From contig JAJFHS010000053.1 in the NCBI GenBank assembly GCA_021775475.1, forward strand, positions 44,271 to 108,270: 64,000 bases of DNA, read 5' to 3'. How positions within the stretch are numbered: position 1 is the first letter of the stretch; the number at the start of each line of letters is the position of its first letter. A program made the translations under genes and the position numbers. The stretch is from Hyphomicrobiales bacterium. GTDB taxonomy: Bacteria > Pseudomonadota > Alphaproteobacteria > Rhizobiales > JAJFHR01. This document shows positions 38,058 through 55,844 of this stretch, in pieces. The notes under the pieces were generated by a model, which saw only the letters and a list, made by a program, of their open reading frames with translations, was not told the origin of the DNA and made no database searches.

Positions 38058-38485
38058 TGGACGATGAAAAGCTGGAAGCGCAAGATTACCCGCTAGCCGA
38101 AATGCGTCGTGATCTGGTTCGCGGTCGCCGGGGAAAATCGCTCGATCAACTTGATCTGGCAGCGGTTGAAAACGGCGATGTGGTAATGGAAGATCTTAAG
38201 ATTACCGCCCGCGCCCTCGAATTGCAGGCCAAGATTGCCCGCACCGGAAACCGGGAAAAACTGGCGGAAAATTTTGAACGCGGCGCCGAACTTGTCGAAG
38301 TTCCTCAGGACTACCTGATGGAAATCTACGAATTATTACGACCCGGTCGCGCCCGCGACAAACATGTTTTGGAGAAAGTTGCCGAAAACCTGCGGGCCAC
38401 CTACAATGCCAACCACATGGCCAGATTTATCGAAGAAGCCGCTGAAGTCTATGAGGCGCGCGGCCTCTTTGCATCGAGATTTTAA
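38057..38485 (+). CDS. Diol/glycerol dehydratase small subunit (PduE-like)
   Basis: DYPLAE, DLKITARALELQAKIA, LAENFERGAELVEVPQDYLMEIYELLRPGR match the PduE/DhaB3 pattern. There is a TGATG overlap with the upstream gene. Confidence 0.8.
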   Translation: MDDEKLEAQDYPLAEMRRDLVRGRRGKSLDQLDLAAVENGDVVMEDLKITARALELQAKIARTGNREKLAENFERGAELVEVPQDYLMEIYELLRPGRARDKHVLEKVAENLRATYNANHMARFIEEAAEVYEARGLFASRF

Positions 38486-39372: not shown

Positions 39373-40533
39373 ATGCTGAAATACCAACTTTCAAGACGTA
39401 ATTTTCTTCAACAAACTGGCGTGTGGGCCGCTGCGGCCTCATTTGGTGGTCTGCCCAATCTGGCTTATGCCGCTTCGGACCGCTCAAAAGAGCTGAACAT
39501 CTATTGTTGGGAAGGATATAATTCTGATGATGTGCTTGATCCTTTCCGCAAAGAGTTCGCTGCCAAGGTTCGTGCTGAAGGCTTAACCTCTGATCCTGAT
39601 GCCGTAAACAGATTGCGCGCTGGTGAAACCAAAGTCTGGGATATCATCAACGTCAACAATCCCTGGGCGCGCGAAATGATGTATCCTGAAGGCCTGATAA
39701 AACCCATTCCCCGCGAACGCTTTGATCCTTATTATGACAAAATGATGCCAGCCTTCAAGCCACCGTACAAGTGGGCGATGGATGCAAAAGGCAAGGATCT
39801 TCTGGGCATGACCCAGCGCTTTGGCCCGTTCTCCTTTGTCGTCAACACCGATAAAATCAGCCGCAAAATGGCTGAAGACCAGGGCTTCAAACTATTCCTT
39901 GATCCGGCAATGAAGGGCCGTTATGGCATTTTGACATATGATAACTGGAACATTTATCACATGTGCATCGCCGCTGACATCGATCCGTTCAGAAAACATA
40001 CAAAGGCTGAGATTACCAAGTTTGGTGAAGTTGCCAAACAGATCTTCAACGGCGCCAAAAACCTCACCGACGATCTCGTGGCCATGAATCTTGCTCTGAT
40101 CAATGGCGAAATTGATGCTTATTTCACCGGTGGCACCTACACAGCGTCTCCGGCACGACTTGATGGTGCCAAAAATATTCGCGGTATCACGCCGAATTCA
40201 GGCCCCATGGGCGGCAAAGGCGGCATTGTCTGGATTGAACTGACCTCGGTTGTCAACAATCCCAATCCTTCGCCATTGGCAGAGGATTTCCTCGAATATG
40301 TCCAGCGCCCTGATGTTTCCAAAAAAGTCGCCTTCGCTGAAGGCACCTATAATCCCGTTACCCAGATGGGAAGTCAGGAAGTATTGAGCACGTTTTCGAA
40401 AGAAGAACTCGATGCCATTCAATGGGATTCCCTCGAGCAGGAAATGGCTAATTCGGTTGATTATGACATCAACCCTGATTACGCTGAAATGTATGAGTTG
40501 TATTCTGCTGCCAAACGCGAACGTAAAACTTAA
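39373..40533 (+). CDS. ABC transporter periplasmic substrate-binding protein (PotD/PotF-like) with Tat-type signal
   Basis: SRRNFLQQTGVWAAAASFGG signal, 386 aa, polyamine-type SBP character, followed by ATPase and two permease genes. Confidence 0.75.
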   Translation: MLKYQLSRRNFLQQTGVWAAAASFGGLPNLAYAASDRSKELNIYCWEGYNSDDVLDPFRKEFAAKVRAEGLTSDPDAVNRLRAGETKVWDIINVNNPWAREMMYPEGLIKPIPRERFDPYYDKMMPAFKPPYKWAMDAKGKDLLGMTQRFGPFSFVVNTDKISRKMAEDQGFKLFLDPAMKGRYGILTYDNWNIYHMCIAADIDPFRKHTKAEITKFGEVAKQIFNGAKNLTDDLVAMNLALINGEIDAYFTGGTYTASPARLDGAKNIRGITPNSGPMGGKGGIVWIELTSVVNNPNPSPLAEDFLEYVQRPDVSKKVAFAEGTYNPVTQMGSQEVLSTFSKEELDAIQWDSLEQEMANSVDYDINPDYAEMYELYSAAKRERKT

Positions 40534-40617
40534 AATCTCTGAGATAGAGAAACTATCACCGACCAGGGTCAGGGCTCATACAGCTCTGACCCTCAATTAT
40601 ACTAGAGGAAATAAACC

Positions 40618-41694
40618 TTGGTTGAGTTAAGCGAGCCTTTTCTTGAGCTCAATGGCATCACCAAACGCTTTGGCAATTTTGTCGCGGTGGATGATGTCAA
40701 TCTTGAAATTACAGAAGGTGAGTTTTTCACGCTTGTAGGGCCATCAGGATCCGGCAAAACCACCATGATACGGATGCTGGTTGGCATGGACGCACCTTCT
40801 GACGGCGAAATGCGCCTGCAGGGCCGGGTTATGAACGATTTGCCGGCAAACAAACGTCCAACCTGCATGGTGTTTCAGTCGCTGGCCCTGTTTCCGCACA
40901 AATCCGTTGGTGAAAACATCGAGTTTTCGATGAAAATCACCGGAAAAGATAAAGTCAAAAGACGCGCGCGAGTTGACCAGTTGATGGAGCAACTACGGCT
41001 GCCCTTATCTTATTACGAAAAAAGCGTTACTCAATGTTCCGGTGGTGAACGCCAGCGCATAGCCCTGGCCCGCGCCCTGGCGTTCGATCCGCAAATTCTG
41101 TTTTTCGATGAACCCTTGTCAGCACTTGATTTCAGGTTGCGTAAAGCGCTGGAAAAAGAGCTTAAAGATATTCACCGCGAAACCGGTAAGACATTTGTCT
41201 ACATCACTCATTCGCTTGAAGAAGCCATGGTCATGTCAGACCGCATCGCCATTATGCGCGAAGGCCGCATCGTCCAGATTGGCACGCCACATGAAATTTA
41301 TAACAATCCCAAAAATAAATTCGTCGCCCAGTTTATGGGGGAAGTGAACACCCTTTCGGTGGAAAAAGCTGGTGAGAATACGCTTCGGGTTACCGGTTTT
41401 GATGACATTTTTACGGTCACGGATGATCTTTCCGATTTCACCACCGGGTTCTTGATCATTCGCCCCGAGGTTATGAAAATTGGCCGATCAGCTGCTGACA
41501 TGAAAAACAAAATCAAGGGCATCGCCTTTAATGATTACGCGCTTGGCTCGCGGGTGCAATATCAAATCAGAATTGAGCACTTTGACGAACCGTGGCTGGT
41601 AGAGCGTCTGCAGGACGAACCCTATGAAGGCCAGCGCGGCGACACCGTCGACATTGGCTGGCGACCTGAAGATTCGATCCTGGTGAGTAATTAA
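40618..41694 (+). CDS. ABC transporter ATP-binding protein (PotA-like)
   Basis: Walker A GPSGSGKTT, signature CSGGERQR, Walker B ILFFDEP. A TTG start is preceded by AGAGGAAA. Confidence 0.9.
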   Translation: MVELSEPFLELNGITKRFGNFVAVDDVNLEITEGEFFTLVGPSGSGKTTMIRMLVGMDAPSDGEMRLQGRVMNDLPANKRPTCMVFQSLALFPHKSVGENIEFSMKITGKDKVKRRARVDQLMEQLRLPLSYYEKSVTQCSGGERQRIALARALAFDPQILFFDEPLSALDFRLRKALEKELKDIHRETGKTFVYITHSLEEAMVMSDRIAIMREGRIVQIGTPHEIYNNPKNKFVAQFMGEVNTLSVEKAGENTLRVTGFDDIFTVTDDLSDFTTGFLIIRPEVMKIGRSAADMKNKIKGIAFNDYALGSRVQYQIRIEHFDEPWLVERLQDEPYEGQRGDTVDIGWRPEDSILVSN

Positions 41695-41699
41695 TCAAA

Positions 41700-42575
41700 A
41701 TGGCAAAGACCTCACAGAGCAATATGAGCAGCTGGTTGAAACAGCCAGGCGTTCTGGCCGCCCTGCCCGCTTCATTGTTCCTGTTAATCGGATTTGCCGG
41801 GCCACTTTTATTGGTGGTGGCATACAGCTTCATGCCGTCGAAAACGTTTACGTTGCTGCAGGCACCGACAATTGAAAACTACTCGTCAATAATCAGCGAC
41901 AGCTATTACATATCATTTTTCTGGTCGCTGGCGATGGCGCTGACAACCGTGGTTTTGTTGTTCATCATTTGCTACCCGATTGCCTACGGCATGGCCAAAT
42001 TATTCAACAAGTGGGCCAACTTGGTGACCGCGCTTATTGCCGTTCCCATTCTTATTTCCGAAAACATCAGACTGTTTGGCTGGGTTTTGATCTTGCTCAA
42101 AAACGGTGTTTTTGATGGCTCAATGCAAAGCCTGTTTGGTCTGTCGATCTCCGGTCTCCTGTTTACAGTACCCGCAATCACCCTCGGGCTGGTCTATGTC
42201 TACCTGCCGTTTATGCTGTTCCCGCTGGTTATCGGCATTTCCATGGTTCCTGAAACCCTGAAAGAAGCAGCATCTGATCTTGGTGCCACACGCTGGCAGA
42301 TATTTCGCGAAATTGAGTTGCCACTGTCGATGCCCGGGTTGATGATTGGCGGCATTTTAACGTTTGTGCTGGTGTTGGGATCTTTGGCCGAGGCTAAAAT
42401 TCTTGGCGGACAGGCCATTGTCATGATTGCTGACGATATTGAATCGGCCTTCACCTTCGCTCAGAACTGGCCCAAGGGTTCAGCCTTGTCAGTGCTGCTG
42501 ATAGCTCTTTCCGGCATCATTGTTTTCTTATTATTCAGGCGCGTTGACCTTGACCGCGTCATTGGCAGGCGGTGA
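41700..42575 (+). CDS. ABC transporter permease (PotB-like)
   Basis: 6-TM permease with the EAA-type loop EAASDLGATRWQIFREIELP. Confidence 0.85.
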   Translation: MAKTSQSNMSSWLKQPGVLAALPASLFLLIGFAGPLLLVVAYSFMPSKTFTLLQAPTIENYSSIISDSYYISFFWSLAMALTTVVLLFIICYPIAYGMAKLFNKWANLVTALIAVPILISENIRLFGWVLILLKNGVFDGSMQSLFGLSISGLLFTVPAITLGLVYVYLPFMLFPLVIGISMVPETLKEAASDLGATRWQIFREIELPLSMPGLMIGGILTFVLVLGSLAEAKILGGQAIVMIADDIESAFTFAQNWPKGSALSVLLIALSGIIVFLLFRRVDLDRVIGRR

Positions 42576-42579
42576 GGAT

Positions 42580-43398
42580 ATGAAAGCATCACGTTCACAA
42601 AACCTTTCGCGCCGCTTTATAATCCTGTGGACAGGGGTGGTCATTGCCTTTTTGTATGTGCCAATGATAGCTGTTGTCCTGGCATCATTTTCCAAGCAAC
42701 GCTATTTCAAATTCCCCATCCAGAGCTGGACCGACAAGTGGTATCAAAAAGCTTTTTCTTCACTGTCAGTACGCGAATTATTATGGACATCCTTGTCGGT
42801 CGCCGCATTGGTCACTATCATCTCGGTGGTACTGGCTTTTTTTGGTGCGCTGGCTTTTGCCAGGTATGACTGGAAGGGACGCAAGCTCTATCAGCGTTTG
42901 ATTTTACTGCCGATTTTCTTTCCTCAAGCCGTACTTGGCCTGGCAATGTTATTGTGGTTCTCGGCCATTGGCGTTATCACCAGTTGGCAGACAGCGGTGT
43001 TTGCACATCTGGTGTGGATTACCCCCATTGTCATTTTGATCATGTCTATACAGGTTTACAGCTTTGATCCGGCACTGGAAGAAGCAGCGTATGACCTCGG
43101 TGCCACGCGCTGGCAGGTGTTGACGGAAATAACCCTGCCAATCCTGTCGCCGGGGATAATATCGGGTGCAATTTTTGCATTTTTACTGTCGTGGGGAAAT
43201 TTCCCCTTATCACTTTTTACCACCGGCGCCGACCAGACCATCCCTGAATGGCTCTATGCCAAAATGGTGTCGGGCTACACCCCCATGGTGCCGACACTGG
43301 GGTCTTTAACCTTATCAAGTGCCGCTGTATTTTTGTTGATCGCCTATATTATCTGGCTGGCAATAAGCGCGCGGCAGCGGCGAATGGAAAACAGATAG
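42580..43398 (+). CDS. ABC transporter permease (PotC-like)
   Basis: EAAYDLGATRWQVLTEITLP loop. ATG 42580 is 4 nt after the upstream stop and is preferred over the overlapping start at 42520. Confidence 0.85.
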   Translation: MKASRSQNLSRRFIILWTGVVIAFLYVPMIAVVLASFSKQRYFKFPIQSWTDKWYQKAFSSLSVRELLWTSLSVAALVTIISVVLAFFGALAFARYDWKGRKLYQRLILLPIFFPQAVLGLAMLLWFSAIGVITSWQTAVFAHLVWITPIVILIMSIQVYSFDPALEEAAYDLGATRWQVLTEITLPILSPGIISGAIFAFLLSWGNFPLSLFTTGADQTIPEWLYAKMVSGYTPMVPTLGSLTLSSAAVFLLIAYIIWLAISARQRRMENR

Positions 43399-43416: not shown

Positions 43417-44181
43417 ATGCTGACATCAATAGCAGGCAGATCAGTCATCGTAACCGGTGCAAGCAAAGGCATCGGCAAAGGAATTGCCCGCGTATTTGCC
43501 AATCAGGGCGCAAAAGTCCTGGTGGTCTCGCGCACACTTGATGAGGCGCAAGCCGTAGCCGAAGAAATCGGCAATGGAGCTTCCGGGTTTTCCGCCGATA
43601 TTGCCAGTTGGGAGCAAACTCAAGCCATGGCCGAGGCCGCGGTTGAGCGCAATGGCGGGCTTGATATTCTATGCGCCAATGCCGGCATTTATCCCCAAAC
43701 CAATATTGAAGATATGGACCCGGAAGAATGGGATCAGGTAATGGACACCAACCTCAAGGGTACGTTCCTGTCGGTTAAAGCCTGTCTGCCGCACTTGAAA
43801 AAATCCGATCAGGGCCGTGTCATCCTGACATCATCAATCACCGGGCCCGAGACCGGTTTTCCCGGCTGGTCACATTACGGCGCCAGCAAATCCGGCCAGC
43901 TTGGGTTTATGCGCACCGCCTGCATCGAACTGGCAAAACACGCCATCACCATGAATGCGGTTTTACCCGGCAACATCTATACCGAAGGCCTCGATGATCT
44001 GGGCGATGACTATCTCGCAACCATGGCCGCATCCATTCCGTTGAAAAAAATTGGTGCCGTCGAAGATATCGGCAATGCGGCGTTGTTTCTGGCATCCAAG
44101 GAAGCCAATTATATCACCGGCCAGACAATCATTGTCGATGGTGGCCAGATATTACCGGAATCTCTCGAAGCGCTGGAATAA
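43417..44181 (+). CDS. Short-chain dehydrogenase/reductase (candidate amino-alcohol dehydrogenase)
   Basis: TGASKGIGKGIA, NAG and YGASK motifs. The substrate assignment rests on context only. Confidence 0.8.
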   Translation: MLTSIAGRSVIVTGASKGIGKGIARVFANQGAKVLVVSRTLDEAQAVAEEIGNGASGFSADIASWEQTQAMAEAAVERNGGLDILCANAGIYPQTNIEDMDPEEWDQVMDTNLKGTFLSVKACLPHLKKSDQGRVILTSSITGPETGFPGWSHYGASKSGQLGFMRTACIELAKHAITMNAVLPGNIYTEGLDDLGDDYLATMAASIPLKKIGAVEDIGNAALFLASKEANYITGQTIIVDGGQILPESLEALE

Positions 44182-44374: not shown

Positions 44375-45439
44375 CTAGGTTAGTTGCGCCCGCAGCTGTC
44401 GCGGCGACACGCCGGTCCAGCGGCGTACTGCGCGTGAAAATGCGCTGAGTTCTGAATAGCCCAGCAGAAAAGCTATCTCAGAAAACGGCAGATGACGTTG
44501 TTTGATGTACATCAGCGCCAATTCGTGCCGGGTGGTTTCGATCAGGTCCTTGTAAGCCAGGCCTTCGTGCGCCAGTTCACGCCGAATGACGGAAGCTGAT
44601 AATTTTAAACTTAAAGCCACCTGCTCCATAGAGGGATAGCCATCGGGCAACTGCGTGCGAATGGTATTTTGTATGCGGCCTATCAAAGATACCGGCTGGT
44701 CGTTTTCCTTACCCACCGTCTCCAGACACGTCTGCATGATCGTCATCAATGTCAGATCGCGACCCGGCATTGAGCGTGTCATTGTATCGGGTTTGAACAA
44801 CAGGGCGTTCACGGGTTGAGAAAAATACACCGGCGCGGAAAATGCGGTTTCATGATCTTTCCAGTTTTCCGGTTTGGCGTGTTCAAAATGAACTTCTTCA
44901 GGTATCCAGCCCGCGCCACAGCCTTCGCGTATAACGTTTAAAAACATGCCAAGCGAAAGTTCAGCATCCTGGCGGCGCTCGATAATATCGGGTGCCTGAA
45001 TTTGATATTCCAGCCGCATCAACCCGCTGTCATCTTCACACAACGACATGATCGACGATTCCTGATGATAACGAAAAAGCCCCACCAAATTTGCCAGTGC
45101 AACGCCTAATGTGGGTGAAGAAATTGCAGCATAACCCCACAGGCCTAAGTCTTTTGGTGAAAACTGATTGCCAAACCACAGGCCGAAATTATCGTGTTTG
45201 GATATACGTGAAGCTTCTTCAAACAAACGGCAAAATGAAGACAGGCTCAACTTCAAGGTAGGCTCGCCCGCCATTTCCGGGGCAATGCCAGCGTGACCAA
45301 AGGTACGATCAACATCACCACCCATTTTCTCGATGAACTCAACCATGCCTGTGGCAGCAGCGGCAAGCACAGCAGGGTTTGAGCCGGCAACACTTTGCCC
45401 GCAAACCGGACGTTCGAGATAGTGGGTAGCAATATTCAC
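44375..45439 (-). CDS. AraC family transcriptional regulator (EutR/OruR-like architecture)
   Basis: C-terminal double HTH (LLGYSELSAFSRAVRRWTGVSPRQLR) and a ~240-aa N-terminal sensor domain. Confidence 0.85.
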   Translation of the reverse strand: MNIATHYLERPVCGQSVAGSNPAVLAAAATGMVEFIEKMGGDVDRTFGHAGIAPEMAGEPTLKLSLSSFCRLFEEASRISKHDNFGLWFGNQFSPKDLGLWGYAAISSPTLGVALANLVGLFRYHQESSIMSLCEDDSGLMRLEYQIQAPDIIERRQDAELSLGMFLNVIREGCGAGWIPEEVHFEHAKPENWKDHETAFSAPVYFSQPVNALLFKPDTMTRSMPGRDLTLMTIMQTCLETVGKENDQPVSLIGRIQNTIRTQLPDGYPSMEQVALSLKLSASVIRRELAHEGLAYKDLIETTRHELALMYIKQRHLPFSEIAFLLGYSELSAFSRAVRRWTGVSPRQLRAQLT

Positions 45440-45531: not shown

Positions 45532-46545
45532 TTAGCTGAAATCTGCAATATACCTTCGACACAAGGCATCGGTTTCGCGACTGTATGTCACCCCCATCGA
45601 CTGGGCGAGATCGGTTTCCGAGTGCGATCCGATCCAGGCCACCAGCAGCAATCTTCGCAACATGACGAAAGTGGGGATTTCCGCTTCATCTTCTTGCGGT
45701 AAATCGATGATTTTACGATAGCCCTTGACCCAGGATTTGAGCAGGTCGGGGACTTCCGGCCGGGTTTCAAAGAACGACACCGTTGTGGCGCAATCATACA
45801 TCAGCCAGCTGAACCCACAGTCGTCAAAATCAATAACCTTGGTAGTGTCACCATCAATAAGCAGGTTTGCCAGCCGCATGTCGCAATGTATCAGACCAAA
45901 ACGCTCAGATGATTTTCCAAATTCCGCCAATCGATGCTCAATCAAATCGACGGTTTTGCCAAACAGCTCGATGCGCTCAACGTCCAGACCCATGCCATCG
46001 CGCCATCGCCCCCAATGAGGATTTGCCCCTAGAGAGGTGTCAAAATCCCAGGTAAGGCGCTCAAAACCCTGCGGCAGTTCCCACGATTTCACATGCGCAT
46101 GCATGCGCGCAGCCGTTTCTCCCAACACTTCAAAGGGTGCGCGCAAATCATCTTCTTCCTCAGAAGGCTCAATGCCGCTTTCCCATTCAAACAGCACCAC
46201 CTGGCGGGGATTAGACATGCTCGCATGGCTCACCGTTTGAATGTCTTCACCATCGAGCCCCGCTACAACTGCCGGTGTAATGGCGGTCCCGCTTGCCCGC
46301 AAGGCTTTGGCCCAGGCAAGCTCTGAAGCGATGGCGTTTTTGCTATGATATCCTTCACGATGAACCCGCAAGGCCCAGCACTGCTGTGAATGAGGAGCTT
46401 CGATCCTGTAGGTTGCATTTTCTGACAGGTTAATCATGCGGGCACTAGCACCCGCAGGCAGTGCAAAACGGGCAAGAGAGGCCTCTGCAAGATGTTGCAG
46501 GCAAATCAACTGTTCTTCGTGAGAAAGCGCGTCAAATGCAGACAT
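45532..46545 (-). CDS. APH-fold phosphotransferase (candidate amino-alcohol kinase)
   Basis: Brenner motif HCDMRLANLLID and the metal-binding IDFDDCG motif. 337 aa. Confidence 0.8.
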   Translation of the reverse strand: MSAFDALSHEEQLICLQHLAEASLARFALPAGASARMINLSENATYRIEAPHSQQCWALRVHREGYHSKNAIASELAWAKALRASGTAITPAVVAGLDGEDIQTVSHASMSNPRQVVLFEWESGIEPSEEEDDLRAPFEVLGETAARMHAHVKSWELPQGFERLTWDFDTSLGANPHWGRWRDGMGLDVERIELFGKTVDLIEHRLAEFGKSSERFGLIHCDMRLANLLIDGDTTKVIDFDDCGFSWLMYDCATTVSFFETRPEVPDLLKSWVKGYRKIIDLPQEDEAEIPTFVMLRRLLLVAWIGSHSETDLAQSMGVTYSRETDALCRRYIADFS

Positions 46546-46749: not shown

Positions 46750-48021
46750 GTGAGCATCGAAAAACTGGAATTCCTGGAGCAGTCGAAAACCTTCTGGAAT
46801 CCGAACAAAACCCAGTTCTGGCAGGATGTCGGCGTTGATCTGGTGATCGACCGCCGCGAAGGTTATTGCCTCTATGACATGGATGGCAAGCGCCTGATTG
46901 ATGTGCACCTCAATGGCGGCACCTACAATCTCGGTCATCGCAATGCCGAACTCATAGAAGTCCTCAATGCCGGTGCCAAACGCTTTGACATGGGCAATCA
47001 TCACTTTCCGGCGCTCGCGCGCACCGCTCTGGCCGAAGCGCTGGCCAAATGTACGCCTGACGGGCTGCAATACACGATTTACGGTGCAGGTGGCGCCGAA
47101 GCAGTTGAACTGGCGATTAAATCCGCCCGTCACGCCACCCAAAAGCGCAAGATTGTCTCGATTATCAAAGCCTATCACGGCCACTCCGGTCTGGCGGTCA
47201 AAACCGGCGATGAGCGCTTTTCCAAGACATTTTTGTCCGAAGACACAGTTGGTGAATTTATACAGGTACCGTTCAATGACCTTGAAGCGATTGAAAAGGC
47301 TCTAAAGGGTAAGGATGTTGCCGCCATCATTATGGAAACAATCCCGGCAACCTACGGATTTCCGATGCCGCACGAGGGCTACCTGCCTGCCGTCAAAAGC
47401 CTGTGCGAACGCTATGATGCCCTGTATATCGCTGACGAAGTACAAACCGGCCTCATGCGTACGGGTGAACTCTGGGGCATCACCAAATATGGTGTCACAC
47501 CGGACATTATGGTGATTGGCAAGGGCATTACCGGCGGCATGTATCCGATTTCATGTTGTGTCGTCAACGAGCGCGCTGGCCAATGGCTCAAGCAGGACGG
47601 CTTTGCCCATATGTCAACTGCGGGTGGGGCCGAACTTGGCTGTATTGTCGCGTTGAAAGTGCTCGAAATCACCCAGCGACCCGAAGTTGCCTCCATGGTG
47701 GCTTATATCTCCGATTTCATCCGTGCAGGGCTCGATGATATTCAGGCACTTTACCCCGATTTTTTCACCGGCATTCGCCAGAACGGTGTCATTATGGGGT
47801 TGGAATTTAATGACCCAGAAGGTGCCAAGCCGGTGATGAGGCATCTTTATGAACATGGTGTCTGGGCAATTTTCTCGACCCTTGATCCCTCCGTGTTGCA
47901 GTTCAAACCCGGCATTCTCATGACCCAGAGCCTGTCTGAAGACCTGCTGGCCCGCGTCGAAGTCGCCATCGGTCTGGCGGCTAAAGAAGTTATGGGCAGC
48001 GGACGCAGAGGCAAGATGTAA
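46750..48021 (+). CDS. Class-III aminotransferase-fold PLP enzyme (candidate amino-alcohol O-phosphate phospho-lyase)
   Basis: DEVQTGLMRTGELWG, and GKGITGG with the PLP lysine. GTG start with GAGAGG upstream. The phospho-lyase role is inferred from pairing with the kinase. Confidence 0.8.
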   Translation: MSIEKLEFLEQSKTFWNPNKTQFWQDVGVDLVIDRREGYCLYDMDGKRLIDVHLNGGTYNLGHRNAELIEVLNAGAKRFDMGNHHFPALARTALAEALAKCTPDGLQYTIYGAGGAEAVELAIKSARHATQKRKIVSIIKAYHGHSGLAVKTGDERFSKTFLSEDTVGEFIQVPFNDLEAIEKALKGKDVAAIIMETIPATYGFPMPHEGYLPAVKSLCERYDALYIADEVQTGLMRTGELWGITKYGVTPDIMVIGKGITGGMYPISCCVVNERAGQWLKQDGFAHMSTAGGAELGCIVALKVLEITQRPEVASMVAYISDFIRAGLDDIQALYPDFFTGIRQNGVIMGLEFNDPEGAKPVMRHLYEHGVWAIFSTLDPSVLQFKPGILMTQSLSEDLLARVEVAIGLAAKEVMGSGRRGKM

Positions 48022-49601
48022 TGGACCAGGCCATCGCCAACCTCGTTGACATTTCCGCATCCCCCGCCGCCATGCATGCCGCAGCCGACATGGTGCTGGA
48101 ACGGGCGAGATGGGCATCGCAGGTATTTCAACGTTATGACCGCGACACAACGCTTGCCATTGCCGACGCGGTAGCAAAGGCTGCCCACGACAATGCGGCA
48201 AAATATGGTGATTGGGCAGTTAAGGAAACCGGCTTTGGCGTAGCTGATCACAAGACGCTAAAAAACCAACTTACCGCTAAGCCTCTGGTTGATTATTATC
48301 GCGATCGAGATTTTGTTAATCCGAGATTTGATGCCGAAAAAAATATTATCGAAGTGCCCAAACCCGCCGGTGTGGTGTTTGCGCTTGCGCCCTCCACCAA
48401 TCCGATTTCAACCATCTACTTCAAGGTTTTATGTGCCCTGATGACCCGCAATGCCATCGTCATCAGCCCGCATCCCGCCGCCCGTGAATGCTCCGTTGAT
48501 GCCGTCAACACATTGATAAAAGCCGCCGAAGATGCCGGCGCACCGGAGGCGGTAATTCAGGTCATAGAGCATCCCACTCTGGCGCTAATTGATGAATTTA
48601 TGGGCTCGGAAAAAACCAATGTCATTCTCGCCACCGGCGGCAGTGCCATGGTGCGGGCAGCGTACTCATCCTCCAACCCGGCCATTGGTGTCGGCCCCGG
48701 CAATGCACCGGTTTTTGTCGAGGCAAGTGCTGATCTGAAACAGGCGGCTGCCATGATTGTCGAGAGTAAATCATTCGATAATTCAGTTTTGTGCACCAAT
48801 GAATCGGTGCTGATCACCCTGGCGGAAATATCTCAAGCGCTTTTGCGCGAGCTTGGCCGCAACAAATGCCATATCTGCAAACCCGACGAAGTTGAATTGC
48901 TGCGCCGCTATCTGTTTCATGATCGCGGCTTTAACGTCGAAGCGCTTGGCCGCGATGCTACATGGATTGCCGAACAAGCCGGGTTCAAGGTTCAGCGCAA
49001 CACCAAAATCCTGCTCACGCCCATAGATAAAATTGGTGTCGGTGAAGTATTGTCGCGCGAAAAACTGTGTCCGGTACTAGGCTATTATGTCGCCACCAGT
49101 GTAACCCAGGCCATAACTCAGGCCCGCGCCTTGTTGCGCTATACCGGAGCGGGACATTCGGCTGCCATCCACTCAAACGACAATCAGACAATTATGGATT
49201 ATGCCGCCGGTGTCGAAGTTTACCGCGTTATTGTCAATGCACCGTGCAGTCAAGGTGCTGCCGGATTTGCCACCAACCTTGCACCTACCTTCACCATTGG
49301 CACCGGCTATTTTGGCCGCTCCTCAGTGGGCGAGAATGTCGGCCCACAGCATCTGGTAAACTGGACCCGTATCGCCTGGAACAGCCAGGCCAGTGGCAAT
49401 ATTAATGATTTTCAAACAGCAAGGCTCAACCACCGTGGCAAGTTGCCAAAAGCACCTGCCGATGGTGTGCCGGGACAATCGCGGGTAAGACGCGAGGTGT
49501 CTGATAACTCTCCCCGGACACCGGCGCGCACCGACCCTGAATTACGCGAAGAAATTCGCCGCATTATTGCCGAAGAGCTGCGCTCGGCGCTGAAGGATTG
49601 A
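48021..49601 (+). CDS. CoA-acylating aldehyde dehydrogenase (EutE/PduP family) with a C-terminal encapsulation-peptide-like helix
   Basis: ALDH fold with the catalytic Cys in FDNSVLCTNES. A Pro/Arg/Ser-rich linker is followed by ELREEIRRIIAEELRSAL at the extreme C-terminus. TAATG overlap with the upstream gene. Confidence 0.85.
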   Translation: MDQAIANLVDISASPAAMHAAADMVLERARWASQVFQRYDRDTTLAIADAVAKAAHDNAAKYGDWAVKETGFGVADHKTLKNQLTAKPLVDYYRDRDFVNPRFDAEKNIIEVPKPAGVVFALAPSTNPISTIYFKVLCALMTRNAIVISPHPAARECSVDAVNTLIKAAEDAGAPEAVIQVIEHPTLALIDEFMGSEKTNVILATGGSAMVRAAYSSSNPAIGVGPGNAPVFVEASADLKQAAAMIVESKSFDNSVLCTNESVLITLAEISQALLRELGRNKCHICKPDEVELLRRYLFHDRGFNVEALGRDATWIAEQAGFKVQRNTKILLTPIDKIGVGEVLSREKLCPVLGYYVATSVTQAITQARALLRYTGAGHSAAIHSNDNQTIMDYAAGVEVYRVIVNAPCSQGAAGFATNLAPTFTIGTGYFGRSSVGENVGPQHLVNWTRIAWNSQASGNINDFQTARLNHRGKLPKAPADGVPGQSRVRREVSDNSPRTPARTDPELREEIRRIIAEELRSALKD

Positions 49602-49604
49602 TTT

Positions 49605-50225
49605 ATGGCTGATTTGCGTTCCTTCATATTCATCGACCAGTTGCAGCCGCAAACCATGTCTTATATGGCATCGTGGATGCGCGGCTCCCTGCCGCGCGCG
49701 CATGTGGCAGCCCAGATCATTGAGGTGGCTCCGGGTCTGGATATCGAAAACCTCACCAATATTGCTCTCAAGCACGCTGGTGTTCACGCCGGAATTCTGG
49801 TGGTCGAGCGCCAGTTCGGCTATCTCGAGTTTCATTCCCGCGATACGTCTGCTGTAAGGGAAGCTGCACAAGCGGTGTTAGATAATCTTGGTGCTGAAGC
49901 AGATCATGCCATGGCGCCGAAGATACTCGGATCCAAAATTGTCACGCGTATCGATAACCAGCACGCTTTTTTGATCAACCGCAACAAGTTGGGTTCTATG
50001 GTTCTGGGCGGAGAATCGCTGTATCTTCTCGAAATACAACCGGCATCTTATGCAATTCTGGCAACAAATGAAGCCGAGAAAGCCGCCAATATCAAGGTGG
50101 TTGATTATCGCATGATCGGTGCCAACGGGCGGGTTTATCTCTCAGGCAAAGAATCCGAAATCCGCAGCGCGCGCGAAGCCGCTGAAGCCGCCCTTGGTGG
50201 TTTTGATCAGGGAGAAGCTGCATGA
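49605..50225 (+). CDS. BMC-T shell protein (tandem BMC domains)
   Basis: 206 aa containing two BMC-like halves (EVAPGLDIENLTNIALKHA ...; ILATNEAEKAANIKVV ...). Confidence 0.8.
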   Translation: MADLRSFIFIDQLQPQTMSYMASWMRGSLPRAHVAAQIIEVAPGLDIENLTNIALKHAGVHAGILVVERQFGYLEFHSRDTSAVREAAQAVLDNLGAEADHAMAPKILGSKIVTRIDNQHAFLINRNKLGSMVLGGESLYLLEIQPASYAILATNEAEKAANIKVVDYRMIGANGRVYLSGKESEIRSAREAAEAALGGFDQGEAA

Positions 50226-50635
50226 CCACAGATGCCGTCAGATCCCTGATCCGAGAAGTGCTGGCCGAAGAACTGGGGCGCGTTGCCCGCGAGCGCTCAA
50301 CAACCAAAGAAACTGTCTCGATACAGACTAATAAGGATTTGCAGGCGCTGGTTCTCCATATAGTGGAAATAGCCCGCGACAAATCCATGCGCGACCGCAT
50401 CATCGCAGGAGATCATGTTTTTGTGCTTGAGACCCCGTCGGGTGTATCCGTGGCAAAAACCCCTGCGCCAAACGCCAGCGACGTGGAGCAGATAACAAAA
50501 GGTTTTTTGTCCGAGCGTGCAATAGAAGCCCTTCCCGCCAATACCCGTGTGGTGCAGCTTGGACACGGAGTGCGTTTTACACCGCTTGCCCGCGACCGGT
50601 TGAGACAGCGGAAGATAACAGTTGAAAGGATATAA
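50222..50635 (+). CDS. BMC-locus hypothetical protein with an N-terminal encapsulation-peptide-like amphipathic helix
   Basis: 137 aa. The N-terminal AVRSLIREVLAEELGRV shares the (I/V)(L/I)AEEL core with the AldDH C-terminus. ATGA-coupled to the preceding shell gene. The C-terminal domain is unrecognised. Confidence 0.6.
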   Translation: MTTDAVRSLIREVLAEELGRVARERSTTKETVSIQTNKDLQALVLHIVEIARDKSMRDRIIAGDHVFVLETPSGVSVAKTPAPNASDVEQITKGFLSERAIEALPANTRVVQLGHGVRFTPLARDRLRQRKITVERI

Positions 50636-50637
50636 TT

Positions 50638-50877
50638 ATGGTCAGAGGACGCGTTACCGGCAGACTTTGGGCAACCAAGCGCATTGACACACTCCCCCAG
50701 GGCGCTTTGTTGAATGTAGAGCTGGAAAACGGCACACAGATCATCGCACTGGACCCGCTTGGCTGTGGCGAAGGTGAAGATGTGCTGGTTACTCAAGGCT
50801 CCGTTGCCGCCGGTTATTTTGACGATATCAAAGCCCCCATCGATGCGCTGATTATCGGCTCCATCGATGCCGACTAA
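50638..50877 (+). CDS. BMC-P pentameric vertex protein (EutN/CcmL/PduN family)
   Basis: 79 aa. MVRGRVTGRLWATKR ... ALDPLGCGEGEDVLVTQGS ... IDALIIGSID matches the EutN family pattern. Confidence 0.9.
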   Translation: MVRGRVTGRLWATKRIDTLPQGALLNVELENGTQIIALDPLGCGEGEDVLVTQGSVAAGYFDDIKAPIDALIIGSIDAD

Positions 50878-50917: not shown

Positions 50918-51196
50918 ATGTCAAACGAAGCAATAGGAATGATTGAGACCAGAGGGTTCGTAGCCGCTTTAGCTGCCGCTGACGCCATGGTGAAAGCAGC
51001 GAACGTAAAAATTGTCTCGCGTGAAGAAGTCGGTGCCGGTCTGGTATCCGTGGTTATTCAGGGCGACGTCGGCGCGGTTAAGGCTGCCACCGAAGCCGGT
51101 GCTGAAACTGCCGGACAAGTTGGTGATCTGATATCCGTTCATGTGATTCCACGCCCGCACACAGATCTCGGCAAACATTTTACGGCTAAAAAATAA
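50918..51196 (+). CDS. BMC-H hexameric shell protein (PduA/EutM-like)
   Basis: [27 protein letters not shown] ... GDVGAVKAA is the canonical BMC-H sequence. GGAG RBS. Confidence 0.95.
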
Positions 51197-52355: not shown

Positions 52356-53738
52356 TTGAAGGGCTGGGGATTACAGGAATTGTCTGAAGTACACCAAACA
52401 GAGCACATGCATCCGCCATCGAATTTTTTTCTAAACTGCGAGAAGCATTTGGCAGAAACTTCGCAGATGCGGTTTCAGGATCAGCAGGTTACCAATTTTT
52501 TGAGTACACTCGATTATTTGTCCGACAAAAAGCAATCCGCTGCTTCATTCCAAAATCGCAGCGCTTTGCTGAGCCTCGCTTCGCAGCTCAAGGATATATT
52601 TCTCCTGCCAAGCCGGCACCCCTCAAAAGCCAGCTTTTTTGGCGCGATATTAGAGCCTGAAACTTTTGGTTTTTCTGGCATTAATGACACGCCGGTCAGC
52701 GTTAGTGGGCGTGGGCACACTATTCAACAGGCGTTTGAGAGCTGTATTGGCGAAGCTGCCGAATATCTGTCGTTTTTGAAAAGAGCAAATGATCCCCTTA
52801 TCACTCTGAAAAACAGCGATGATGGCTTGCAGCCAGACGAACGCGTTTGGGTACAGGCTGCATTGGGGCTTGGCAGGCATGATGATTTTGGGGCAAGCGA
52901 CCGGATACAGGCCGGTTCACTGATTGATGAGCGTACCGTCTGGTTTCCCAGTGAATTGGTTCTAATGCAACCTGACAAAGGTCGCTGGACACCGCGGCCT
53001 GCTGAAAGCAATGGTGTGGGCGCTGGCCGGGATTACAATCACGCCGTTTATTCCGGCATGACAGAAGTGATAGAGCGTGATGCCTTTGCCTTGTGGTGGT
53101 TTGGTGAAAAACCTGCATATTCCTTAAACCCGGAAGTTGAAAACAATAGCAAATTCAAAGAATTTATTCGCGATTGCCGCAGCACCAGCGATCGCCAGAT
53201 ATGGTTTCTGGATATTTCCAGCGAAATTTCCGTACCGGTAGTTGCAGCTTTTTCTTCCCGACCCGATGGCAGCGTTGTCGTCGCTGGCTTTGCAGCCGAC
53301 CCCGATCCAATGATCGCTGCACAAAAGGCGTTCCTTGAAATGTGCCAGATGGAAATTGCCCAGGAAATTTCGATAGCCAAGCTCGAGTACTATGGTGAAA
53401 AGCACTTGAGTGCACAAGATCGCACCTGGCTAAATCGCCATAAAAACCTCTCCGTCAAGAAGTACCCCTTGCTGATCGAAAGAAAATCAGCCATTCGCCC
53501 CCTTTTGGCACCATCGGCTGATCCTCATAACAGGGTCATTGAGATGCTGGATCAATCCGGTTTCACCCCCTTCGTCGTCGACCTCAGCCGAGCAGACCTA
53601 AACATACCCGTCGTTCGCGTTCTCGTGCCTGGATTACAATCGGCAAAAGCCGACTGGATAACTCCCAGGCTCAAAAAAATTGCGCGCAAGACCGGTGCGG
53701 ATTATTGCGGTTTTGAAAACAAACTCTCCCCCATTTGA
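52356..53738 (+). CDS. YcaO-domain protein (ATP-dependent amide-backbone activating enzyme family); start uncertain
   Basis: YcaO signatures GRGHTIQQAFESCIGEAAEYLS and ESNGVGAGRDYNHAVYSGMTEVIERDAFALWW. Candidate starts are TTG 52356, ATG 52407 and ATG 52467, and none has a clear SD. Confidence 0.75.
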   Translation: MKGWGLQELSEVHQTEHMHPPSNFFLNCEKHLAETSQMRFQDQQVTNFLSTLDYLSDKKQSAASFQNRSALLSLASQLKDIFLLPSRHPSKASFFGAILEPETFGFSGINDTPVSVSGRGHTIQQAFESCIGEAAEYLSFLKRANDPLITLKNSDDGLQPDERVWVQAALGLGRHDDFGASDRIQAGSLIDERTVWFPSELVLMQPDKGRWTPRPAESNGVGAGRDYNHAVYSGMTEVIERDAFALWWFGEKPAYSLNPEVENNSKFKEFIRDCRSTSDRQIWFLDISSEISVPVVAAFSSRPDGSVVVAGFAADPDPMIAAQKAFLEMCQMEIAQEISIAKLEYYGEKHLSAQDRTWLNRHKNLSVKKYPLLIERKSAIRPLLAPSADPHNRVIEMLDQSGFTPFVVDLSRADLNIPVVRVLVPGLQSAKADWITPRLKKIARKTGADYCGFENKLSPI

Positions 53739-53807
53739 TTACTTTGGTAAATTGTGGAACAATTGATTTTTGTTCAGTTTAGTTGAATTAATTTATTCGG
53801 GGGGTGG

Positions 53808-55844
53808 ATGGGTACGCTGGCATCTATCCAGAAAATTGCTGATGGTGAGCGATGGACAGTCCGATTAATTGATGGTTTCGCACTGCAAGGCGCAAACGGG
53901 GAACAAATATCAATCAAAAACCGCAAGGCACGCGGCATCTTTGCTTATCTGGTCCTCGGTCAAAATCAAATCGAAAGCCGCGAACGCATCGCTGGTTTAT
54001 TGTGGGGTGAGCGAGAGGAAGACCGTGCGCGCGCATCACTTAGACAATGCCTCAAACAACTTCGTGATCAATGTGACAGGGCGGGCTTTGATGGATTGCA
54101 GATCGAGCGACAGGAAGTTCTCCTCAACAGAAATTCCTTTCACCTCGACCTCAACTCTATTGCCAATGATCTCAAACAAGGCCGCGTCAGCGACATACTG
54201 ACAAATGGACCGTCAATCCCCGAACGTATTCTTTATGGATACGAGGCACTGGACGAATCTTTTGGCGCCTGGATCCATGTGGTTCGGCAGCATTGGCATG
54301 ACCGGTTGAATAGTGGCTTGCAAACCATCATGAAAAACCAGGATTTTAGCGCATCTCAAACTGCCCAGGCAGCTGAGGCGCTGGTTAGAATTGACCCAAC
54401 CCATGAAGAAGCCTATCGCCATTTAATTCGTTACTACGCTAACATGGGAAATGTACAGGCTGCTTTGAAGCAATATAAAACTCTCTGGGACCATCTCGAC
54501 ATTGAATACGATATGGAACCGGACAGCGAAACCATCGATCTCATCGGAGAAGTCAAGAGCGGGACTTATGTAATATCAAACCACATTGTGGCAACAGCAA
54601 CTCCGTCGGGTAAATCTTTGGGTACGCCGAAAGAAAGGTTGCCGGTCATTGGCATTCGAAATTTTGTTGCCGCTGGCCCGTGGCGGCGCGATAAGTTTCT
54701 GATCGATGGTTTCAGGCGCGAAATGGTAGCGGCACTCATTCGATTTAGAGAATGGTCGATAGTTGAGCAGGGCCAGTCATTAAATGATTTTGATCCGAGC
54801 GCTGATGATATCGCTTCACAGATTGCAACCGACTATTCACTGGAAGGCTCCTACCTCGAAGATGGTGACAGTGTTCATATGGTTATAACCCTCAAAGATA
54901 CCGGGCACTCCCGGTATGTGTGGAGTGAACGCCTCGACCTGACGCAAGAAAGCTGGTTCAAAGCCCAACGGCTCATTGTTCGCCGTGTGGCAATATCTCT
55001 CAATGTTTACCTGTCGGTTGACAGGATGCAGCGGACAACCGGGCAGTTTGCAGTCTCGTCCGATATTTACGGCCGCTGGCTCCTGGGCCAGGAATTGAGT
55101 TATCGCTGGCGGCTTGAAGATGAAGAAAAGGCCGAAGATATTTTCCGCTCTATCATCGATGACAGCCCTCAATATGCGACCGCCTACAGCAGCCTGGCAC
55201 AGATCATGAATTCCCGTCATCACATCCATCCAGGCACTTTTCGCTCCGATGAACAACACATCGAAGCTTTGGAGCTGGCGAAAAAAGCCGTCAGAAATGA
55301 CCCGCTTGATTCGCGAACACAGCTTTCACTGGCCTGGTCCTATGCCATGAATGCCAGTTACGACAAAGCTATCCTCAATTATCGGCTCGCCGGCCAGTTA
55401 AATGAAAATGATCCGTGGACACTTGTTTCCAGTGCGCTTGGTCTGGCTTATTGTGGCCAACCGGACGAGGCCGCCAGCTTAAACGCACAAGCTCTATCCG
55501 TTGGCCTTAGCTCCTCTCCGCTGCATCTGGCCTATCGCGCCGGTATCCATTTTATATGTGGGGATTATACGGCCTGCATTGAAGCCGCCAGCCAATCGAA
55601 AGATACAATTGGCTATGTATCCGCCTGGAAATCAGCGGCGCTGTCCCACTTGAAACGCCGCAACCAAGCCCGCGCTGAAGCGCAAAAATTCTTGGCAGTT
55701 ACGCGAGGAAACTGGCGGGGCAGTTCAAATCCGAGCGACGCGGAAATAGCCAAATGGCTGTTACACTGCTTTCCGATCCGTGATCAAAAGGTTTGGAAAC
55801 GCCTGCGTGATGGTTTGGCACTCGCAGGCGTTCCGGTCGAATAA
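53808..55844 (+). CDS. SARP/BTAD-type winged-helix transcriptional activator with a C-terminal TPR region
   Basis: N-terminal wHTH (RKARGIFAYLVLGQNQIESRERIAGLLWGE), a BTAD-like helical region (HEEAYRHLIRYYANMGNVQAALKQYKTL), then TPR-like repeats. 678 aa. Confidence 0.7.
   Translation: MGTLASIQKIADGERWTVRLIDGFALQGANGEQISIKNRKARGIFAYLVLGQNQIESRERIAGLLWGEREEDRARASLRQCLKQLRDQCDRAGFDGLQIERQEVLLNRNSFHLDLNSIANDLKQGRVSDILTNGPSIPERILYGYEALDESFGAWIHVVRQHWHDRLNSGLQTIMKNQDFSASQTAQAAEALVRIDPTHEEAYRHLIRYYANMGNVQAALKQYKTLWDHLDIEYDMEPDSETIDLIGEVKSGTYVISNHIVATATPSGKSLGTPKERLPVIGIRNFVAAGPWRRDKFLIDGFRREMVAALIRFREWSIVEQGQSLNDFDPSADDIASQIATDYSLEGSYLEDGDSVHMVITLKDTGHSRYVWSERLDLTQESWFKAQRLIVRRVAISLNVYLSVDRMQRTTGQFAVSSDIYGRWLLGQELSYRWRLEDEEKAEDIFRSIIDDSPQYATAYSSLAQIMNSRHHIHPGTFRSDEQHIEALELAKKAVRNDPLDSRTQLSLAWSYAMNASYDKAILNYRLAGQLNENDPWTLVSSALGLAYCGQPDEAASLNAQALSVGLSSSPLHLAYRAGIHFICGDYTACIEAASQSKDTIGYVSAWKSAALSHLKRRNQARAEAQKFLAVTRGNWRGSSNPSDAEIAKWLLHCFPIRDQKVWKRLRDGLALAGVPVE

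Follow-up and report, generated by a model that had tools for sequence, protein, structure and literature searches.

The compartment locus and its conserved hypothetical protein

The window analyzed here is a 64,000-nt stretch of Hyphomicrobiales contig JAJFHS010000053.1 (six-frame translation, 127,996 residues) that carries a bacterial microcompartment (BMC) locus. The subject of this work is a 137-aa protein encoded in that locus, hereafter p137, considered together with the CoA-acylating aldehyde dehydrogenase (AldDH), whose C-terminal helix resembles the N-terminal helix of p137. In mycobacteria and rhodococci, microcompartments are mainly of the RMM/AAUM type, which is also common among marine and soil Proteobacteria. 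By its predicted gene content, the window locus is an RMM/AAUM-type (aminoacetone/amino-alcohol) metabolosome: Pfam searches identify AldDH, a class-III aminotransferase-fold enzyme (AT3), an APH-type kinase and a short-chain dehydrogenase/reductase (SDR), which are kept together in related loci, and Pfam and NCBIfam searches identify one BMC-H, one BMC-P and two different double-stacking BMC-T shell proteins (Table 1). The same shell and enzyme set makes up the published description of this type (PMC8217296 supplement; PMC4207490). The genes around p137 are closely packed: the AT3 stop and the AldDH start overlap by 1 nt, the stop of the first BMC-T gene and the start of p137 share an ATGA, and the BMC-P start lies 2 nt past the p137 stop; a Shine-Dalgarno-like stretch, GGGAGAAG, is located 5' of the p137 ATG.

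p137 has no match in Pfam or NCBIfam. A word-indexed search retrieved 98 relatives, an exhaustive profile search 843 representatives at 50% identity, and a third search with divergent seeds 3256 clusters at 90%; all the relatives are named "hypothetical protein" and none contains a Pfam domain. The order AT3-AldDH-BMC-T-p137-BMC-P-BMC-H-BMC-T is conserved, as far as the contigs extend, in 42 of 43 genome loci, which span Alpha-, Beta- and Gammaproteobacteria and include the cultured Fodinicurvata, Afifella pfennigii and Spiribacter onubensis. The core order was also detected in locus L044, in an Actinomycetota metagenome-assembled genome (MAG) and on plasmid pRHL2 of Rhodococcus jostii RHA1, a strain of one of the species after which the RMM type is named. 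The RHA1 homolog of p137 (WP_011600239.1, 145 aa, annotated as a hypothetical protein) is duplicated (RHA1_RS42635 and RHA1_RS42665) and has the full three-domain architecture described below. In every locus with a readable interval, p137 is encoded between BMC-T and BMC-P, and in every locus with a readable junction, directly upstream of BMC-P; for p137 there are no homologs from outside BMC loci to set against these.

For Mycobacterium smegmatis, the 2021 catalogue assigns gene 0271 to BMC-T, 0272 to BMC-H, 0273 to BMC-P, 0275 to BMC-T, 0276 to AldDH and 0277 to AT3, and by this numbering gene 0274, which occupies the p137 position, is the presumed p137 ortholog. The table of hidden Markov model (HMM) names in that catalogue has entries for msmeg_0271-0273, 0275-0277 and 0279 and no entry for 0274. 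A full-text literature search for MSMEG_0274 returned nothing, and two JBC papers by Mallette and Kimber may still comment on the gene.

Table 1. Coordinates and supporting matches of the features in and around the compartment locus (EP, encapsulation peptide; AF2, AlphaFold2)
Feature	Position in window	Strand	Evidence or remark
AldDH, CoA-acylating aldehyde dehydrogenase, 526 aa, metabolosome core enzyme	48021..49601	+	PF00171
AldDH conserved proline-rich motif GKLPKAPADGVPG, consensus GPLPxAPSDGVPG	49437..49475	+	residues 473-485
AldDH poorly conserved P/R/S-rich linker	49476..49538	+	length and sequence vary across tails
AldDH C-terminal EP helix ELREEIRRIIAEELRSAL	49539..49592	+	E507-L524
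p137, PduM-like small protein, 137 aa	50222..50635	+	gene between BMC-T and BMC-P
p137 EP-type helix, residues 3-24	50228..50293	+	core AVRSLIREVLAEELGRV at 50234-50284; AF2 pLDDT ~90
p137 middle domain, beta-alpha-alpha-beta, residues 28-69	50303..50428	+	AF2 pLDDT ~95
p137 disordered linker, residues 70-87	50429..50482	+	AF2 pLDDT 39-68; gapped and length-variable in alignments
p137 C-terminal domain, residues 88-137	50483..50632	+	...SERxVxxLPxGTRxVxLGxxVRFTPLARDRLRQRxIxVER
AT3, class-III aminotransferase-fold enzyme, presumed aldehyde-generating signature enzyme	46750..48021	+	PF00202
BMC-T shell protein 1, double-stacking, CcmP/CsoS1D-like, 206 aa	49605..50225	+	NCBIfam CcmP 8.8e-62, weak PF00936
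BMC-P pentamer (EutN/CcmL)	50638..50877	+	PF03319, 3.5e-19
BMC-H hexamer	50918..51196	+	PF00936, 1.1e-27
BMC-T shell protein 2, double-stacking, CcmP-like, 207 aa	51290..51913	+	NCBIfam CcmP 4.5e-56
APH-family kinase, amino-alcohol kinase type	45532..46545	-	PF01636; syntenic in related loci
AraC-family regulator	44375..45439	-	PF12625, PF12833
SDR, short-chain dehydrogenase/reductase	43417..44181	+	PF13561, PF00106
ABC transporter: binding protein, ATPase, two permeases	39373..43398	+	adjoins the locus in many relatives too

Terminal helices of AldDH and p137

The NCBIfam models of acetylating acetaldehyde dehydrogenases align to residues ~19-461 of AldDH only, leaving residues ~462-526 beyond the enzyme fold. 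This extension ends in ...GKLPKAPADGVPGQSRVRREVSDNSPRTPARTDPELREEIRRIIAEELRSALKD and, as the initial annotation of the sequence had described, includes a P/R/S-rich linker followed by the helix ELREEIRRIIAEELRSAL. The helix consensus LREEIRRIIAEELRxALK is present in 41 of 42 AldDH tails, the exception (L017) being a misassembled open reading frame (ORF), and the linker that precedes it varies in length between roughly 20 and 45 residues across these tails. The Eisenberg moment of the helix is 0.49-0.52 over 18 residues, which places it in the 98th percentile of all windows of the locus proteins. C-terminal EPs of metabolosome AldDHs are already textbook knowledge, and by these features the AldDH helix looks like a standard EP; the position of the EP, N- or C-terminal, is reported to be constant within one BMC type (PMC4594438). 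In L043, a Pseudomonadales MAG, the AldDH ends in ...LKELIREVLAEELRDILKK, where the segment LIREVLAEEL corresponds to the consensus of the p137 helix.

The motif GPLPxAPSDGVPG, which precedes the linker, occurs in most of the proteobacterial loci; L043, L048, L045 and RHA1 lack it. Given that EP linkers are normally unconserved, this motif may be a binding site. Its co-occurrence with the middle domain of p137 (both are missing in L043 and L048) was considered as well and rejected, because the domain occurs without the motif in RHA1 and in L045, an Actinomycetota locus. In L044 (7234-7386), the segment encoding the AldDH EP (…MRDEIRQLVLEELRQMF) is out of frame with the annotated 3' end of the AldDH gene, probably because the public contig contains a frameshift or an assembly error.

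The N-terminus of p137 reads MTTDAVRSLIREVLAEELGRVARER; the ORF thus starts with the segment that the initial annotation had singled out, AVRSLIREVLAEELGRV, and the AlphaFold check suggested there yields a confidently predicted helix. The pattern [IV][LI]AEEL, which had been noticed as the common core of the two helices, has exactly two occurrences in the six-frame translation, namely in the AldDH and p137 helices, against 0.11 expected from composition. An HMM of the N-terminal helix, built from 352 members of the p137 family, was run over the window and 47 loci, in all 10,612 stop-to-stop ORFs. The true p137 N-termini ranked at the top and were followed by approximately 28 AldDH C-termini with scores of 18-7 bits versus about one decoy. 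In the same search, the HMM had no match on the kinase, AT3, SDR, the AraC regulator, the transporter or the shell proteins, and a single internal match of 4.5 bits on a diol dehydratase encoded upstream of the locus, which agrees with the earlier observation that the kinase, AT3, SDR and dehydratase carry no comparable helix.

Residues R11, E12, L14, A15, E17 and L18 are invariant in 32 p137 sequences, and no other part of the family is as strongly conserved as the helix. The short stretch between the helix and the middle domain varies in length among homologs and makes a weaker case for a linker than the AldDH tail does. The description of both segments as amphipathic helices of ~18 residues holds for AldDH and, over 11 residues, for p137, where the Eisenberg moment of 0.79 falls within the range of the EPs of E. 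coli EutE and EutC computed identically; over 18 residues the moment of the p137 helix is modest (0.13-0.32). That the AldDH and p137 helices represent one sequence class and are, as originally proposed, BMC EPs is well supported on comparative grounds by their form, terminal position and conservation.

Domain architecture of p137 and C-terminal homology to PduM

An AlphaFold2 model of p137, computed from an alignment of 149 sequences (mean pLDDT 88.7), comprises the N-terminal helix, a middle domain, a disordered linker and a C-terminal domain (hereafter C-domain; residues 88-136 in the model) made up of two beta-hairpins, a pair of short helices and a terminal strand. In the middle domain, V32, L40, G63, F67 and L69 are conserved; the small proteins encoded in L043 and L051 lack this domain, and an HMM of the domain had no match in PduM. 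Among the 149 diverse family members, P121 and L122 are the only invariant residues, R11, V32, L40, G63, F67, L69, E98, T120, A123, D125, R128 and R136 are near-invariant, and no Cys or His is conserved. Neither sequence profile searches nor Foldseek detected relatives of p137 in the PDB. Given the absence of conserved catalytic-type residues and of any relative in Pfam, NCBIfam or the PDB, p137 does not look like an enzyme and probably is not an enzyme cargo.

The comparison of the p137 family with PF15953 (PDU_like) gave repeated sub-threshold matches, in all cases between the last ~40 residues of the family and profile positions 113-153 (6 of 32 members, with E of 0.016-0.11). PF15953 is the PduM family: Salmonella PduM matches the whole profile with an E-value of 1.2e-61, and proteins that carry this domain appear in the databases under the name PduM. 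Against PduM, the C-domain HMM reaches 16-23 bits, invariably at residues ~122-159, compared with 7.8 bits for the best of 9,725 decoy ORFs. When the full p137 family was aligned with the PduM alignment using hhalign, the probability was 87.8% (P 3.3e-6, score 40.3), with a maximum score of 19.1 in 60 column shuffles and a score of 12.5 for the reversed alignment; for the C-terminal halves only, the probability rose to 95.7% (P 8.4e-9). The homology of the C-terminal ~50 residues of p137 to the C-terminus of PduM speaks against the initial assignment of p137 as an unknown cargo. At the other end of the protein, the next matches of the N-terminal helix HMM, after the AldDH tail, are weak ones (E 0.3-5) to PduM residues 7-25.

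Residues 1-23 of PduM are a signal sequence, both necessary and sufficient to target the protein to the core, and the loss of pduM partly uncouples core and shell and results in enlarged compartments (PMC12108088; PMC9132943). The pduM gene adjoins pduN in the pdu operon, and as recently as 2025 PduM was stated to have no known homologs beyond Pdu compartments (PMC12108088). The initial annotation had allowed that p137 could prove to be a known non-cargo protein; p137 comes close to this, being PduM-like, but proteins of the PduM type reach the core themselves by means of a signal sequence.

Other resemblances of the C-domain were considered and set aside. The motif TPLARDxxRxxGI (p137 residues 118-132 and the equivalent segment of homologs) resembles the E3-binding domain (PF02817, E 0.07-0.2), a match that is below threshold, covers a single helix and amounts to a motif resemblance only. 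A likeness to the N-termini of EutQ and EutT, suggested by eye from a shared motif (xITxxDVx..TPxARDxxxxxGIxI), did not hold in E. coli K-12, where the C-domain HMM gives 3.9 bits for EutT and no match for EutQ, and Pfam PDU_like matches neither of these two proteins.

The C-domain as a putative portable module and targeting of AT3 in related loci

In the divergent, RMM-like locus L043, the protein encoded between BMC-T and BMC-P has 98 aa and is limited to the C-domain, preceded by an EP-type helix and a linker. The AT3 of the same locus (8621-10168; 515 aa, phospho-lyase-like, divergently transcribed) ends in a linker followed by a C-domain (47 bits). A metagenome scan with this AT3 yielded a second fusion in a BMC locus, L048 (8001-9560; 76% identity, C-domain 50 bits), and also L051, which encodes a short protein with EP, linker and C-domain. 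By contrast, 13 AT3 homologs from outside BMC loci (53-61% identity), which adjoin a kinase gene and not shell genes, end within ~10 residues past the aminotransferase fold and lack the C-domain. EPs were originally recognized from extensions that solely the compartment-associated homologs possess (PMC4594438), and the presence of the C-domain on the BMC AT3s and its absence from the 13 other homologs extend this reasoning to a folded domain.

A different solution is seen in RHA1, where AT3 (535 aa) ends in ...SGVGLGDGAVREELRRLIVEELRGLIGQNHG, which is also the AldDH C-terminus of that locus; the two enzymes have identical tails of 31 residues that include the EP. On pRHL2 (L086 5976-12906), a block consisting of an EP-coding 3' end, BMC-T, the hypothetical gene, EutN and BMC-H is present twice, after the AldDH gene and after the AT3 gene, and the shared tail apparently arose through local duplication. 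Judged by the EP in RHA1 and by the C-domain in L043 and L048, which the 13 non-BMC homologs lack, AT3 is a targeted component in related RMM loci. The AT3 of the window has no terminal targeting element recognizable with the helix or C-domain HMMs. The initial annotation predicted from the distribution of helices that the upstream chemistry takes place outside the shell; given that AT3 is targeted in related loci, the lack of a helix on the window AT3 does not imply a minimal lumen, and for AT3 this prediction is not supported.

The possibility that the middle domain of the small protein is lost exactly when AT3 gains a module of its own was also entertained and is weakened by RHA1, which combines a full p137 homolog with an EP on AT3. 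In the RMM-like metagenome locus L048, a gap of ~280 bp between BMC-H and BMC-T (5328-5611) contains no ORF of at least 50 aa on the operon strand, and no BMC-P or small protein with EP and C-domain was found there; the gap may reflect gene loss, decay or sequencing error.

Proposed role of p137 and alternative explanations

We consider it reasonably probable that p137 corresponds in RMM compartments to PduM, as a small assembly protein without enzymatic activity that tethers the core to the shell, that the AldDH extension is a conventional EP, and that AT3 resides inside the shell. This proposal draws on what the analysis established directly, namely the sequence features, their conservation, the synteny, the predicted fold, the fusions of the C-domain and its homology to PduM. 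Under this scenario, the AldDH EP, exposed on a variable linker, would bring the enzyme into the cargo core or condensate under the shell, and the N-terminal helix of p137, being of the same class, would insert p137 into this AldDH-based core, with the two helices co-assembling; EP-driven association and condensation have been described (PMC12339742). The middle alpha/beta domain would be the second of three modules, and the C-domain, on its flexible linker, would make the second contact as a separate protein-protein anchoring module. Candidate partners of the C-domain are BMC-P or BMC-T, which are encoded by the adjacent genes; given these flanking genes and the size phenotype of the pduM deletion, the shell, perhaps the vertex protein, appears to be the leading candidate. 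The bivalent p137 would tether core to shell and help set the size and closure of the compartment, as PduM does in Pdu compartments. Because AT3 is targeted in related loci and should make the aldehyde that AldDH consumes, the window AT3 is expected to be inside the shell as well and, having no signal of its own, would presumably enter through association with AldDH or p137.

Several observations weigh against this scenario. No member of the p137 family reaches the PF15953 threshold (16 bits at best versus 27), and the window protein itself has no match; furthermore, the N-terminal halves of p137 and PduM show no significant similarity (score 14.1 versus a shuffle maximum of 15.9), so that, with the C-terminal halves significant and the N-terminal halves not, the homology claim is confined to the C-terminal ~50 residues. 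Salmonella PduM colocalized with the core and not with shell assemblies (PMC9132943), and thus the binding of the C-domain to the shell is not established even for PduM. As for the N-terminal helix, its moment over 18 residues is unremarkable, and the EP call is accordingly not based on amphipathicity alone; given the short connection to the middle domain and the continuation of the AlphaFold2 helix to residue 24, this helix could partly pack on the middle domain instead of being a free EP. The AT3 fusions of L043 and L048 belong to one clade and represent essentially one evolutionary event. Finally, the localization and function of this RMM protein family are inferred from sequence, which applies to the EP function of the helix, to the role as a tether and to the C-domain partner.

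Among the alternatives, the one that fares best, albeit as a rather unlikely one, is that p137 is not primarily a tether but an adaptor that lends its EP in trans to the EP-less AT3, which would be bound by the middle domain or the C-domain. Such an adaptor would account for the expected encapsulation of the canonical AT3, which lacks its own signal, for the tight coupling of the AT3, AldDH, BMC-T, p137 and BMC-P genes, and for the loci where AT3 has its own module and the small protein is either reduced, lacking the middle domain (L043, L051), or not found (L048). All the reduced small proteins, however, belong to a single clade, and in RHA1 an EP on AT3 coexists with a p137 homolog that has all three domains; a C-domain that is fused in cis to AT3 is hard to square with a C-domain that binds AT3, and the precedent set by PduM is the coupling of core and shell.

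Less probable still appears to be the possibility that p137 is a true lumen cargo with a biochemical role, such as cofactor handling in a metabolosome without phosphotransacylase (PTAC) and alcohol dehydrogenase, so that the lumen would hold AldDH and p137 and the kinase, AT3 and SDR would remain outside. Mallette and Kimber, writing in JBC in 2018, are said to have described four RMM enzymes with four unrelated cofactors and to have proposed that some of them act outside the shell. That AldDH and p137 are the only proteins with the helix in the window locus fits this possibility, as does the lack of obvious cofactor-recycling enzymes in RMM loci (PMC4207490). Against it stand the absence in p137 of conserved catalytic-type residues and of any match to an enzyme family or fold, the homology of its C-domain to a structural protein, and the EP or C-domain carried by AT3 in RHA1, L043 and L048; moreover, by inference from the general model of metabolosome function (PMC8217296), to enclose the consumer of an aldehyde without its producer would defeat the purpose of the compartment.

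We regard as quite improbable a role of the shared helix as a coiled-coil-type pairing element, with p137 as a regulatory or stabilizing subunit of AldDH and no targeting to the shell. The two helices do belong to the same class and are conserved together, and EPs have been reported to self-associate and to drive condensation (PMC12339742), but self-association is part of how EPs are presumed to work, so that pairing can hardly be separated from targeting; a role in assembly is indicated by the PduM-like C-domain of p137 and by the location of its gene strictly among shell genes, and in RHA1 the same helix is found on AT3 too. That two short E/R/L-rich helices resemble each other by chance or composition, as the single-window HMM E-value of just 0.037 might suggest, is hardly credible given that the hexapeptide class occurs only at these two sites in the window, the cross-recognition recurring in ~28 independent loci versus about one decoy, and the terminal position of both helices beside variable linkers and their conservation.

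The interpretation of p137 as a core-shell tether can be taken one step further. We propose tentatively, rating the odds somewhat below even, that the C-domain of p137 and PduM is an autonomous BMC-anchoring domain, a second targeting device besides the EP that can be moved onto enzymes, and that p137 and PduM form one superfamily of bivalent core-shell tethers, which would be a universal, so far unnamed core component of RMM/AAUM compartments represented by more than 3000 clusters. In the literature available to us, we found no description of a conserved EP-bearing small RMM protein, of its PduM-homologous C-domain or of C-domain fusions on compartment enzymes.

Recognition of the hypothetical gene between BMC-T and BMC-P as PduM-like gives it a testable role in core-shell coupling and size control, and extends the kinship of PduM to a second, very different metabolosome. 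In addition, a small folded domain may serve, beside EPs, for attaching enzymes to engineered compartments. The idea of an aldehyde-producing enzyme that acts outside the shell finds no support as far as AT3 is concerned.

Neighboring genes

A B12-type diol/glycerol dehydratase is encoded ~1.3 kb upstream of the ABC transporter of the locus (35778-38057), with the large and medium subunits fused in a protein of 759 aa (PF02286 and PF02288); a 143-aa ORF that overlaps its stop (38054-38485) is small-subunit-like by eye. The linker between the two dehydratase domains (SEQRREEIINIRDQLTRD..., 42 residues) is weakly amphipathic, and no EP-type helix was detected on the protein. Diol dehydratase genes beside RMM2 loci have been observed previously by Axen et al. 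(PMC4207490), and the alphaproteobacterial relatives of the window locus, together with the nearby dehydratase, suggest its assignment to the subtype RMM2/AAUM2. Directly 3' of the shell genes (52356-55844), a YcaO-domain protein (460 aa) and a SARP/TPR-type regulator (678 aa) are encoded; these genes are kept solely in the closest relatives, L002 and L003, and probably lie outside the compartment locus.

Comparison with known systems

The window locus shares the enzyme set, the shell set and the gene order with the RMM1/RMM2 (AAUM) loci of Mycobacterium smegmatis, Rhodococcus jostii and Proteobacteria and, like the RMM2 loci of Axen et al., has diol dehydratase genes close by. It differs from the RMM1/RMM2 loci in having an AraC regulator and an ABC transporter instead of a GntR regulator and an amino-acid permease, and in its AT3, which shares only ~25% identity with the phospho-lyase-like enzyme of RHA1 and L043. 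Two very different class-III aminotransferase-fold enzymes are thus in use in RMM-type loci, and given this divergence, the signature reaction may differ among them.

The AldDH extension has the form typical of the EPs of metabolosome AldDHs, which are N-terminal in PduP and EutE and C-terminal in EUT2, GRM and others: an amphipathic terminal helix of ~18 residues behind a poorly conserved linker, with hydrophobic pairs spaced as in LIxxVLxxEL. Unlike the usual metabolosome EPs, the extension of the proteobacterial clade holds the conserved GPLPxAPSDGVPG motif, and the sequence conservation of the helix is unusually high.

Non-catalytic proteins with which p137 can be compared are known from other compartments. 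CcmN of the beta-carboxysome is an assembly protein with an EP on a variable linker that bridges cargo and shell, as proposed here for p137 (PMC4594438); the two proteins have no sequence relationship, and the EP of CcmN is C-terminal and binds the shell, with a hexapeptide-repeat domain binding CcmM. In PduB, a structural component, residues 1-37 are a signal sequence that links the core with the shell (PMC12108088; PMC9132943), again as proposed for p137; the PduB extension is part of a shell protein, whereas the RMM BMC-T proteins of the window are without such an extension, the helix HMM having no match on them. The closest parallel is PduM, which, like p137, is small (163 aa versus 137 aa) and has no enzymatic signature, begins with an amphipathic signal helix comparable to the EP-type helix of p137, ends in a domain of ~50 residues with significant profile similarity to that of p137, and is encoded directly upstream of the pentamer gene. 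The middle region of PduM is longer, where p137 has the 42-residue beta-alpha-alpha-beta domain and the disordered linker; p137, unlike PduM, belongs to RMM/AAUM loci without diol dehydratase cargo, and the shell partners differ, with the double-stacking BMC-T of RMM compartments in place of the PduB of Pdu compartments.

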